NCBI RefSeq assembly: GCF_056712565.1
Contig: NZ_CM160072.1
DNA: 64,000 nucleotides
Direction: 5' to 3' (one strand)
The notes under the pieces were generated by a model. The model searched no databases. It was not told the DNA's origin and worked only from the letters and a program-made list of their open reading frames with translations. Every line of letters begins with the position of its first letter. The first letter of the stretch is position 1. Of the stretch, positions 11,605 through 11,773 are shown one piece after another. Position numbers and translations under genes: made by a program.

Positions 11605-11631
11605 TAATATCTTTTAGAAGATATCTCTAGG
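11605..11631. promoter_or_regulatory. predicted partial target of the crRNA-like RNA (candidate Csy-complex operator)
   Basis: minus strand 5'-CC-tagagAtatctTc-3' (plus 11631 down to 11617): CC PAM, then identity to the spacer-like segment at positions 1-5, 7-11 and 13; mismatches only at 6 and 12; no pairing beyond 13. Confidence 0.5.
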
Positions 11632-11773
11632 AGAGTTTGTTTGTGTGATCACCACTGGTGTTGTCCCTTTTGCTGTGTATGTCAGTTGTACTGAAGCCAT
11701 GTTGGGCTACGGAGATTTTTCAGTGAAATCAGGGAGCAACTTCGACTTGATGGATTAACGAAAAGGAGCCGAT

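Follow-up and report, generated by a model that had tools for sequence, protein, structure and literature searches.

A probable self-repressed csy messenger leader in a mini-CRISPR cassette of the Escherichia coli type I-F locus

[quoted passage not shown] Between cas2-3 and cas8f we identified an accessory cassette of 347 bp (11451..11797), the ends of which were set by comparison with relatives having no intergenic region; in these a cas3/cas8f junction of ~35 bp stands in place of the cassette. In one such relative (L151), whose Cas8f is 90% identical, the flanks, ending in ...CCCCGTGAAGGGGC on one side and beginning with TTTATAACTGACTA on the other, are common to the cassette-bearing L024 and L002, and the cas3-cas8f gap measures just 17–25 nt in seven more relatives. 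The cassette is composed of a minus-strand mini-CRISPR, an operator with a CC PAM (11605-11631), a leader, and the Shine-Dalgarno (SD) site and first eight codons of cas8f. The intergenic region of NRG 857C, the sister strain of LF82, is base-identical to that of the window, and LF82 itself scores exactly as NRG 857C across the whole cas locus. A deposited 104-aa "hypothetical protein", which spans the entire intergenic region where the TAG at 11615-17 is TGG, was rejected as a spurious call.

Inside the cas locus, the mini-CRISPR consists of a spacer-like sequence between two degenerate repeats. The first repeat, psiR1 (11501..11528, minus strand), keeps the hairpin and an intact GCAGCTTAGAAA, corresponding to the cleavage site and the 8-nt 5' handle; this 12-mer is the sole copy outside both CRISPR arrays, against 0.01 copies expected. 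The second repeat, psiR2 (11448..11475, minus strand), agrees with the repeat at 20 of its 28 positions, retains the Cas6f hairpin and is the best repeat match outside the arrays within the window; it also gave a sub-threshold match to CRISPR-DR4 in an Rfam scan. The guide between them, psiS (11476..11500, minus strand; TAGAGGTATCTCCGGATACGGACTT), has a mean divergence of 0.03 over seven lineages, and its length of 25 nt falls inside the 23–27 nt range given for bacterial I-F CreA/CreR RNAs (10.1101/2024.10.29.618823). The mini-CRISPR promoter (11529..11557, minus strand; TTGCCA, 17 nt, TAACAT) was the only sigma-70-like site detected in 11300-11900, and it is top-scoring in 7/7 lineages with its position unchanged. 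We found no phage-encoded guide mimics: a first search pattern, which was too loose, returned 120 chance matches, none adjoining a repeat, and a strict pattern returned 0.

The operator (11605..11631, minus strand) consists of a protospacer running from 11629 down to 11605 and a CC PAM, the complement of GG at 11630-31. It pairs with psiS at positions 1–5, 7–11 and 13, with mismatches at 6 and 12, and thus forms a PAM-flanked seed match near a cas gene with a mismatch at every sixth position. The sequence CCTAGAGNTATCT occurs once in the 64-kb window (0.06 expected even with one mismatch allowed), and CC followed by TAGAGATATCT, at 11619-11631 on the minus strand, is unique in the window. In the L001 lineage, position 5 is changed from G to T in spacer and target alike, a compensatory change. 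Position 6, by contrast, is free to vary. Because spacer and operator co-vary between lineages, the pairing is real; sequence and co-variation together demonstrate it.

A candidate promoter for the csy operon was localised to 11583..11613 on the plus strand, with TAATAT (11605-10) or TATCTT (11608-13) as its –10 element and a weak –35 element ~17 bp upstream. It is weak by consensus, with about 7/12 matches. Four other lineages carry TTGGTT, 16–18 nt and TAGATT, the –10 of which aligns with that of the window. Based on this sequence, csy transcription probably starts near 11617-11620. Placing the promoter downstream of the operator, which is the arrangement in P. aeruginosa, was considered and rejected, since we read no TAnnnT –10 motif in 11650-11773. 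RT-PCR of LF82 detected csy1 expression and no product across cas2/3-csy1, which separates the csy1 unit from cas2-3 (PMC3506596).

These elements can be arranged into a self-repressing circuit. The segment 11629-11758 would constitute the first ~140 nt of the messenger of the csy (cas8f-cas6f) operon. A crRNA-like RNA would be made on the minus strand from the degenerate mini-CRISPR, under its own promoter, and loaded in the Csy complex, where its 13-position seed is predicted to pair with the CC-PAM site at 11605-11631 and to be mismatched only at the flipped-out positions 6 and 12. The operator would overlap the –10/start region of the plus-strand csy promoter, so that the Csy complex would repress its own synthesis. 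From the sequence and the homologous circuits of P. aeruginosa and Acinetobacter, we infer both the position of the csy promoter and its repression. The leader itself would open with the SD, whose GG doubles as the PAM complement, and continue with a short upstream frame. In the genome analysed here the circuit appears genetically broken, by an amber codon in csy2 and a nonsense codon in cas6f. Overall, we consider it probable that 11629-11758 is the leader of a self-repressed csy messenger within the cassette, that this leader has been remodelled and the circuit broken, and that no active toxin is encoded here. One argument against this interpretation is that, to our knowledge, every experimentally dissected Li-laboratory I-F cas3-csy1 intergenic module carried a toxin. 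Another is that the P. aeruginosa operator lies ~30 bp upstream of the –35 and not over the start site (10.64898/2026.06.02.729485).

The original prediction placed an SD-like site and two small frames in this segment. AGGAGA is indeed found at 11629-11634 (plus strand), its GG (11630-31) being complementary to the CC PAM of the site that the mini-CRISPR targets; in relatives, AGGTGA or AGGATG stands here. The frame that starts with GTG at 11645 (11645..11758, plus strand; 37 codons) encodes VITTGVVPFAVYVSCTEAMLGYGDFSVKSGSNFDLMD as described, with its stop at 11756-58 and a gap of 15 bp to the cas8f start at 11774, and the exact 37-aa protein has been deposited as a "hypothetical protein". The TTG frame at 11641 (11641..11694, plus strand) likewise has the 17 codons assigned to it and is followed by a stop (11692-94), but its translation, LCDHHWCCPFCCVCQLY, contains six cysteines and not the seven claimed. 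Neither frame is kept in related loci as it was drawn.

Six other Escherichia lineages retain instead an ATG-started hydrophobic frame of 27 codons, MIITTGVVPFAVCVVVLKPGWATEIFQ, which we term frame A and of which ATG, reading frame and stop are all preserved. The window lineage has lost this ATG and gained one base, A11684 (plus strand), which is present only there (GTCAGTTGT versus GTC-GTTGT in the six others). The insertion fuses the N-terminal 13 codons of frame A to an overlapping –1 frame (frame B), so that the 37-codon GTG frame runs on from these 13 into the final 23 codons of frame B; the Cys-rich TTG frame is the 5' part of frame B, truncated by the insertion. Judging from the alignment, the two predicted frames are therefore lineage-specific rearrangements of a conserved 27-codon upstream frame. 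Changes within frame A are distributed 5/1/8 over the codon positions, with a pN/pS of 0.31; the coding signal is borderline, our own chi-square calculation on codon positions giving p of about 0.07. By hand calculation, residues 2–17 have a Kyte-Doolittle average of about 2.6 and the hydrophobic segment comprises 16 residues with a 19-residue mean of about 2.0; the window copy has only 12. In relatives the Cys-rich frame lacks a 5' start, its first codon being the TGA of AGGTGA, and it shows 11 non-synonymous changes versus 1 synonymous, a pattern that does not support it as a gene. A role for it as a tRNA-Cys-sequestering toxin was rejected for the same reasons: no start, an in-frame stop in relatives, and changes that are almost all non-synonymous. 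The three small products gave no meaningful family match in NCBIfam, PADLOC or PHROGs.

Ten frames of at least 20 aa overlap 11400-11800, and the mere presence of small frames is no more than chance. The feature of the region that exceeds chance is its conservation. Over seven lineages, mean pairwise divergence is 0.03–0.13 in 11651-11773, as compared with 0.32–0.41 in neighbouring non-coding DNA and 0.17–0.37 at four-fold sites of cas8f. A nearly invariant block (11687..11797, plus strand; divergence 0.03–0.07) runs through the cas8f SD (AAGGAG, 11763-68, plus strand; start codon 11774) into the first eight cas8f codons, and 100-nt windows starting at 11684-11734 fall in the lowest 3–11% of the cas locus by divergence. 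The leader (11651-11797) thus equals the best-kept cas coding sequence in conservation. Because a leader in a discrete cassette is conserved like coding sequence, it contains a functional element, and because this conservation of the 140-nt leader goes beyond what a simple autoregulator needs, it speaks against self-repression as the whole explanation and points to some further function.

The same profile bears on an alternative in which a neutral spacer separates the operator from cas8f, and in which its small frames and SD-like site arose by chance. The abundance of small frames by chance, the lack of family matches and the absence of a significant RNA fold would all fit such a spacer. It is nonetheless very unlikely and already contradicted by the conservation profile: divergence in 11651-11797 is 3–10 times lower than in the non-coding DNA on its flanks and at four-fold sites, the windows from 11684 onward rank among the lowest 3–11% of the locus, and the ATG, frame and stop of frame A are kept in six lineages. 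A structured RNA was not supported. In Rfam scans, with gathering as well as permissive thresholds, the leader gave no match, and its folding energies were no better than those of shuffled sequences (z +0.2 to +1.1). RNAalifold proposed a long hairpin without compensatory pairs, for which the shuffle control was uninformative owing to an invariant 3' arm; in the predicted hairpin the cas8f SD is paired with cas8f codons 5–7.

Another interpretation assigns the leader to translational control of cas8f. Ribosomes would translate frame A, and a fraction would slip –1 at C CCU UUU into frame B, which ends with TAA at 11756-58, 15 nt before cas8f; the terminating ribosomes would open the cas8f start region or couple to it, and the one-base insertion of the window lineage would hard-wire the shift. 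A canonical X XXY YYZ heptamer, C CCT TTT (11665..11671, plus strand), does lie in frame A and is invariant in eight lineages, and a –1 shift at this site would enter frame B, which is open from the slip site to the conserved TAA in all lineages. Such a heptamer is expected by chance, by analytic estimate, in about 5% of frames this long. The divergence minimum (0.029) coincides with the overlap of frames A and B, and past the frame-A stop 3/4 variable sites are third positions of frame B, although this count has a p of only about 0.1, and between the slip site and the insertion the changes are synonymous in frame A and not in frame B. Insertion of one base is equivalent to a –1 shift in frame and leaves the C-terminal 23 residues unchanged. 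The predicted pairing of the cas8f SD with codons 5–7 would also suit translational control, but the predicted leader structure shows no two-sided pair change and folds no better than shuffles. A stimulatory structure should be stable and begin 5–9 nt after the heptamer; the one local hairpin, at –9 kcal/mol (z –0.8), is weak, and it begins ~18 nt past the slip site. Considering these points, we regard programmed frameshifting as quite unlikely.

The condition of the csy genes bears on whether the cassette encodes a toxin. In the window, csy2/cas5f carries an amber codon in place of Q72 (13291..13293, plus strand), the exact 31-mer of which is present in 124/5426 complete genomes, and cas6f is interrupted by a nonsense codon at codon 123 of 184 (15390..15392, plus strand; exact 31-mer in 11 genomes). 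This genome presumably makes no Csy complex. In ATCC 11775, the one carrier of the csy2 amber that was compared, the region is base-identical to that of the window, and a leader of the window type accompanies a csy1 stop in 82.0312 and csy3::IS100 in CFIAFB20120266. Because an unchanged cassette is carried harmlessly beside broken csy genes, the small frames are not expected to be an active toxin in this genome, and a toxin reading here is disfavoured on this genetic ground; what the csy2-null argument demonstrates is that the window-type (remodelled) leader is tolerated, and it does not extend to the ancestral frame. The original prediction had left two alternatives, a tiny toxin or a csy-operon leader with an autoregulating RNA. 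The former finds no support in this genome, given the nonsense codons in csy2 and cas6f and the occurrence of the csy2 allele in 124 complete genomes. The latter gains support from the co-variation of spacer and operator, the positionally conserved weak promoter, the RT-PCR of LF82 (PMC3506596) and the precedent of this architecture in other type I-F systems (PMC10120712).

A toxin may still have existed in the ancestor. According to this explanation, frame A encodes a CRISPR-repressed, membrane-active toxin in the role of CreT/CreP, cells depend on the Csy complex, and loss of the ATG together with the frameshift in the window lineage allowed csy to decay. The layout matches that of I-F CreTA/CrePA modules, with an intergenic region, a crRNA-like RNA, a CC-PAM operator, an SD and a small ORF (PMC10097628, 10.1101/2024.01.05.574328, 10.64898/2026.06.02.729485). 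Six lineages retain the ATG with its SD and frame despite a divergence of 0.40 in the bases around them, the hydrophobicity of residues 2–17 would suit a membrane peptide, and both lesions of the window lineage strike frame A while the remaining leader stays conserved. Moreover, the large clades in which a csy-inactivating lesion has become fixed all have the remodelled leader (124/200 genomes). The annotations of 18 complete ancestral-type genomes showed a single csy lesion (in csy1) and a single frameshift in cas3, the product of which repression does not require. However, the ancestral-type MY203L1 (csy1 W382stop) and contig L013 (csy2 E152stop) carry the cassette unchanged, so that effector loss, which an addiction module of the CreTA/CrePA type should not tolerate, is found with window-type and ancestral-type leaders alike. 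The comparison of csy lesions with leader type, resting on about 3 independent events versus 1–2, is confounded by phylogeny; the association is suggestive, confounded by shared ancestry and contradicted by the two singletons. Frame A would also be the first cistron of the very messenger that supplies Csy, and hence be expressed at steady state. Its product has no toxin or defence family match (NCBIfam, PADLOC, PHROGs), its coding signal is borderline, and no homologue was found outside Escherichia in genome, metagenome, plasmid and phage scans. For the leader as a whole, a genome scan with Cas8f gave only 4 loci, a metagenome pattern scan gave 4 true matches, all Escherichia-like, and 2 chance matches, plasmids gave none, and phages gave chance matches only. 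We therefore consider a disarmed toxin unlikely.

Less probable by far is that the transcript acts as a small RNA toxin of the CreT type, in which the machinery of translation is stalled or sequestered by an SD with a mini-ORF and a stabilising hairpin. The SD and start codon directly downstream of a CreA-type operator are as such a toxin would have them, and precedents are known from P. aeruginosa and haloarchaea. Against it, there is no 15-nt mini-ORF, the shortest frames having 17 and 37 codons; there are no tandem rare codons, and consecutive proline codons (CCN CCN) are absent from every frame in 11617-11773. The region 11440-11800 contains no GC-rich inverted repeat or palindrome, only two 7-nt AT-rich inverted repeats, and the transcript is tolerated in 124 csy2-null genomes. 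This explanation is extremely improbable.

Besides the self-repressed leader, which we continue to favour, a broader history can tentatively be proposed, although we hold it doubtful: the cassette may first have carried a new class of CRISPR-repressed cargo, a hydrophobic 27-residue peptide made from the first csy cistron and acting either as a membrane toxin that enforces the keeping of the Csy complex or as the zero-frame half of a –1 frameshift device gating cas8f translation, which was disarmed or hard-wired in the B2/ST95-type lineage, with csy decay only afterwards. That decay would, with the same reserve, have affected a major pathogenic E. coli group including UTI89, S88, IHE3034 and APEC O1. 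If frame A is a toxin or a frameshift gate, it would represent a new cargo type for CRISPR-regulated modules and provide a genetic explanation of Csy decay in a single large E. coli lineage; were it just a leader peptide, the cassette would be an ordinary, if neat, representative of a known class. The E. coli type I-F system is a naturally active CRISPR in strains such as LF82 and is found in many extra-intestinal pathogens. A crRNA-like self-repression cassette would explain the "constitutive" but bounded expression of its effector operon, and self-repression predicts how anti-CRISPRs or phage mimics would perturb csy expression.

The enterobacterial type I toxins Ibs, TisB, ShoB and Ldr are about 20–35 aa long and have a single hydrophobic segment. 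Frame A resembles them in size and in this segment, without sequence similarity; it differs in that there is no antisense-RNA antitoxin, control would be transcriptional by Csy, and the hydrophobic stretch of the window copy is 12 residues. Acinetobacter CrePA/CreTA (10.1101/2024.01.05.574328; PMC10097628) share with the E. coli cassette a module between I-F cas3 and csy1, in which CreA represses the cargo through partial pairing next to a CC PAM. In Acinetobacter the cargo is either a KilAC protein of 103 aa or a bactericidal non-coding RNA, and the spacer is longer (30 nt in CrePA), whereas the E. coli cargo candidate is a 27-codon hydrophobic frame without a family match, and no KilAC-domain ORF of ~100 aa lies between operator and csy1. 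P. aeruginosa CreTA1/CreTA2 (Wang et al, 2026 preprint, 10.64898/2026.06.02.729485) occupy the same cas2-3/csy1 site, are absent from close relatives (such as PA14), and likewise have a shortened CreA spacer and an SD with a small ORF after the operator; in CreTA1 the regulated promoter is common to the csy operon (10.1101/2024.10.29.618823). The P. aeruginosa toxin consists of a mini-ORF of 15 nt, in which two consecutive proline codons precede the stop, and a GC-rich hairpin downstream of it, neither of which is present in the E. coli cassette, and its operator, ~30 bp upstream of the –35, differs from that of E. coli, which apparently lies over the –10/start region.

The cassette also closely resembles the I-F1 mini-arrays/CreR (Shmakov et al, 2023, PMC10120712; Liu et al, 2023, 10.1101/2023.03.10.532045). 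These occupy the same cas3-cas8f site in orientation opposite to cas3, and have in common with the E. coli cassette two degenerate repeats, a short spacer, a CC-PAM seed match upstream of cas8f with mismatches at 6 and 12, and repression for which the Cascade complex alone is predicted to suffice. The target of I-F1 mini-arrays located between cas3 and cas8 is the cas8 promoter (PMC10120712). Self-repression of the csy promoter, which the co-variation of spacer and operator supports, is a known kind of circuit; we found no explicit description of an E. coli I-F mini-array in the literature. To the arrangement of the I-F1 mini-arrays, the E. coli cassette adds a long conserved leader with an upstream ORF, the cas8f SD and eight cas8f codons.

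The type I-F locus of this E. coli chromosome has the gene order clpA, CRISPR (6731–7058), cas1, cas2-3 (to 11444), csy1/cas8f (from 11774), csy2-4, tRNA-Ser, CRISPR (16119–16507) and infA. [quoted passage not shown] Positions 11380–11830 are 100% identical to ATCC 11775 and NRG 857C; used as a query, this stretch hit 238 of the 5426 complete E. coli genomes. The tRNA-Ser (15692–15776, minus strand), a host gene beyond cas6f, splits the downstream CRISPR array and its leader from the cas operon. IS100 (IS21 family) is recurrent among related loci (L017/L021, 9135–9641; L157; L158). 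In strains 503829 and B7A it has taken the place of the downstream array, and it interrupts cas3 in STEC299 (alongside IS110) and csy3 in CFIAFB20120266. Divergence of Cas8f is concentrated in its N-terminal third, with 62–64% identity to related locus L006 over window 11974–12273 and ~90% elsewhere; cas8f of metagenome contig L010 has an in-frame deletion of 33 residues (35–67).

The original prediction had placed its small frames beside an operator, and this premise held. The minus strand carries a mini-CRISPR composed of two degenerate repeats, psiR1 (11528–11501) and psiR2 (11475–11448), flanking a 25-nt spacer (11476–11500; TAGAGGTATCTCCGGATACGGACTT). psiR1 features a hairpin and an exact GCAGCTTAGAAA, the sole copy outside the arrays (0.01 expected), whereas psiR2 matches 20 of 28 repeat positions and retains its hairpin. 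The adjoining promoter, TTGCCA-17-TAACAT on the same strand, is the best-scoring one, with an unchanged position, in all seven lineages compared. The spacer target, CC-TAGAGATATCT (11619–11631, minus strand), occurs once in the window and is mismatched within its first 13 positions only at 6 and 12; position 6 varies freely across lineages. Position 5 changed from G to T in spacer and target alike in the lineage of locus L001, a compensatory change that, taken singly, is the best sequence evidence that the predicted pairing is functional. Conservation extends over the whole 25-nt guide (mean pairwise divergence across seven lineages, 0.03), yet pairing with the operator is limited to positions 1–13. 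Guide positions 6–19 could form an internal hairpin (GUAUC-UCCG-GAUAC), and conservation of the distal part may reflect another target or a constraint from RNA folding. A search for a viral mimic of the guide found none. The guide's length falls within the 23–27 nt of bacterial I-F CreA/CreR RNAs (10.1101/2024.10.29.618823).

RT-PCR in LF82 gave no product across cas2/3-csy1, and csy1 was expressed in both log and stationary phase (PMC3506596); a promoter for csy must therefore be located between the two genes. No plus-strand consensus promoter passed the scanner. In four lineages, a weight-matrix scan returned TTGGTT, 16–18 nt, TAGATT, whose -10 aligns to 11606–11611, and the window offers TAATAT or TATCTT (11605–11613) as -10 candidates. 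Because of this position, csy transcription is predicted to start near 11617–11620, within the seed.

On the same divergence measure, the seed with its PAM scored 0.11, the PAM-distal protospacer 0.41 and the upstream stretch 11561–11604 0.32. Downstream, values were 0.40 (11632–11650), 0.13 (11651–11686), 0.03 (11687–11726), 0.07 (11727–11773) and 0.02 for the first 27 nt of cas8f, compared with 0.17–0.37 at cas8f four-fold sites. The 100-nt windows starting at 11684–11734 rank in the lowest 3–11% of the cas3-cas6f region. This ranking and the low divergence relative to four-fold sites indicate that the leader is under selection and not merely young. No Rfam family was found in the leader, its folds were not better than those of shuffled sequences, and no covarying pair was detected.

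The AGGAGA motif is present at 11629–11634. The TTG frame at 11641 translates as LCDHHWCCPFCCVCQLY before its stop, with six cysteines rather than the seven claimed, and the GTG frame at 11645 encodes VITTGVVPFAVYVSCTEAMLGYGDFSVKSGSNFDLMD, with its stop at 11756–11758 ahead of the cas8f start at 11774. Since ten frames of 20 aa or longer overlap 11400–11800, such frames by themselves say little, and the small products matched no protein family. Neither frame proved conserved in related loci; both are lineage-specific. Instead, six other lineages (E. coli 503829-type, Rb-50 and SCPM, E. whittamii, Escherichia sp. E1V33 and contig L010) retain an ATG 7–10 nt 3' of AGGTGA or AGGATGA. It starts a 27-codon frame, frame A, M(I/M/L)I(T/A)(T/A)GV(V/A)PF(A/T)VCVVVLKP(G/C)WATEIFQ, that stops at the equivalent of 11724–11726. 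Changes in frame A fall 5/1/8 by codon position (pN/pS 0.31), and those in the other two frames are mainly non-synonymous; this pattern suggests, not conclusively (chi-square p ~0.07), that frame A is coding. The window lineage (200 genomes, 82.0312 subgroup included) has TGT GTG where the ATG stood and an additional A at 11684. As a result, the 37-codon frame joins 13 codons of frame A to 23 of the overlapping -1 frame, frame B, and the insertion leaves the Cys-rich frame as a truncated 5' portion of frame B, which in relatives opens with the TGA of AGGTGA and lacks a 5' start. Both small frames are by-products of the remodelling, in this lineage, of a single conserved upstream frame.

The C CCU UUU heptamer within frame A (11665–11671) is invariant, and slipping by -1 at this site leads into frame B, whose end lies 15 nt 5' of cas8f; the window insertion is the hard-wired counterpart of this slip. 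These features give a modest probability to the overlap acting as a frameshift gate, against which stands the weak hairpin 3' of the heptamer. The window lineage alone also has a third-frame GTG TGA start-stop pair (11643–11648), 9 nt 3' of AGGAGA. An A/G polymorphism at 11616 converts TAG (11615–11617) to TGG in many strains and opens a 104-aa frame over the entire intergenic region (11444–11758), which has been deposited for 864 contigs as a “hypothetical protein” and named YbhN by one source; it crosses the mini-CRISPR and looks like a spurious gene call.

In relatives with Cas8f 59–90% identical (L151/L152, L154, Pseudocitrobacter, Klebsiella oxytoca, Citrobacter koseri, C. amalonaticus, Intestinirhabdus and Enterobacter hormaechei), the cas3-cas8f gap is only 17–25 nt and has its own SD. 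Locus L151 and the loci bearing the accessory cassette share the flanks ...CCCCGTGAAGGGGC and TTTATAACTGACTA, which delimits a discrete cassette, both small frames included, at 11451–11797; it contributes the cas8f SD and first eight codons (MEKTALIQ). Searches of plasmids, phages and sequences outside Escherichia yielded no homologue of the leader. The cas3-cas8f region of the Pluralibacter gergoviae-like contig L150 (880–1500) has a different mini-CRISPR (guide TATTTATTATTGAATGGATCA, CC-PAM target 1363–1385), an unrelated leader and, on the opposite strand, a ccdA-like antitoxin gene (1052–1297) without ccdB. In locus L145 (1420–1500; Cas8f 75% identical), the 78-nt gap holds a psiR2-like hairpin (GAGCTGCTTGTACAGCAGTGG) alone, without spacer, operator or leader, which could be a cassette remnant or precursor.

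Natural csy mutants bear on whether the segment encodes a regulated toxin. The window itself has a csy2/cas5f Q72amber allele (CAG to TAG, 13291–13293), which an allele-specific 31-mer search found in 124 of the 5426 complete genomes of E. coli, including UTI89, S88, IHE3034, APEC O1 and ATCC 11775, so mutation has inactivated the I-F effector in a large group of pathogenic strains. It also has a cas6f nonsense mutation (15390–15392, codon 123 of 184), the sole difference from ATCC 11775 across 8.7 kb, found by 31-mer search in 11 genomes; those among the matches listed for both alleles also carry the csy2 amber. Further window-type genomes have a csy1 stop or csy3::IS100. By direct comparison, the cassette is base-identical to the window in ATCC 11775, the one amber carrier compared, and in the cas-intact NRG 857C. 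Cas5f is an obligate Csy subunit, and repression must therefore be lost in amber genomes. Because csy-null genomes persist, the window-type leader is not an addiction toxin, and the proposed toxin is not supported for this genome. Frame A could, with modest probability, be a toxin disarmed in the window lineage. Genomes with the ancestral-type, ATG-bearing leader have a contiguous cas locus in 38 of 38 complete cases, and the 18 read by annotation contained one csy1 W382stop (MY203L1) and one cas3 frameshift (CRE10); this contrast in csy lesions between leader types is suggestive but confounded by phylogeny. MY203L1 and the ancestral-type contig L013 (csy2 E152stop), both with unchanged cassettes, speak as singletons against strict addiction. 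A GC-rich hairpin and consecutive proline codons were looked for in the leader region and were absent.

The literature search found no paper that explicitly describes the I-F cassette of E. coli. In P. aeruginosa, the YL84 mini-array is a validated Cascade-dependent repressor (PMC10120712); the same elements were later found to control proline-codon RNA toxins, and CreTA1 and csy are driven by one shared promoter (10.64898/2026.06.02.729485; 10.1101/2024.10.29.618823). In Acinetobacter, such modules carry either an RNA toxin or a KilAC protein (PMC10097628; 10.1101/2024.01.05.574328). The E. coli leader differs from the P. aeruginosa toxins in lacking consecutive proline codons. The other reading in the original prediction, that the segment is the leader of a self-regulated csy operon, is supported by the spacer/operator covariation, the weak promoter at an aligned position, csy1 transcription in LF82 and the precedent of cas3-cas8 intergenic mini-arrays directed at the cas8 promoter, an arrangement described as typical of I-F1 (PMC10120712).
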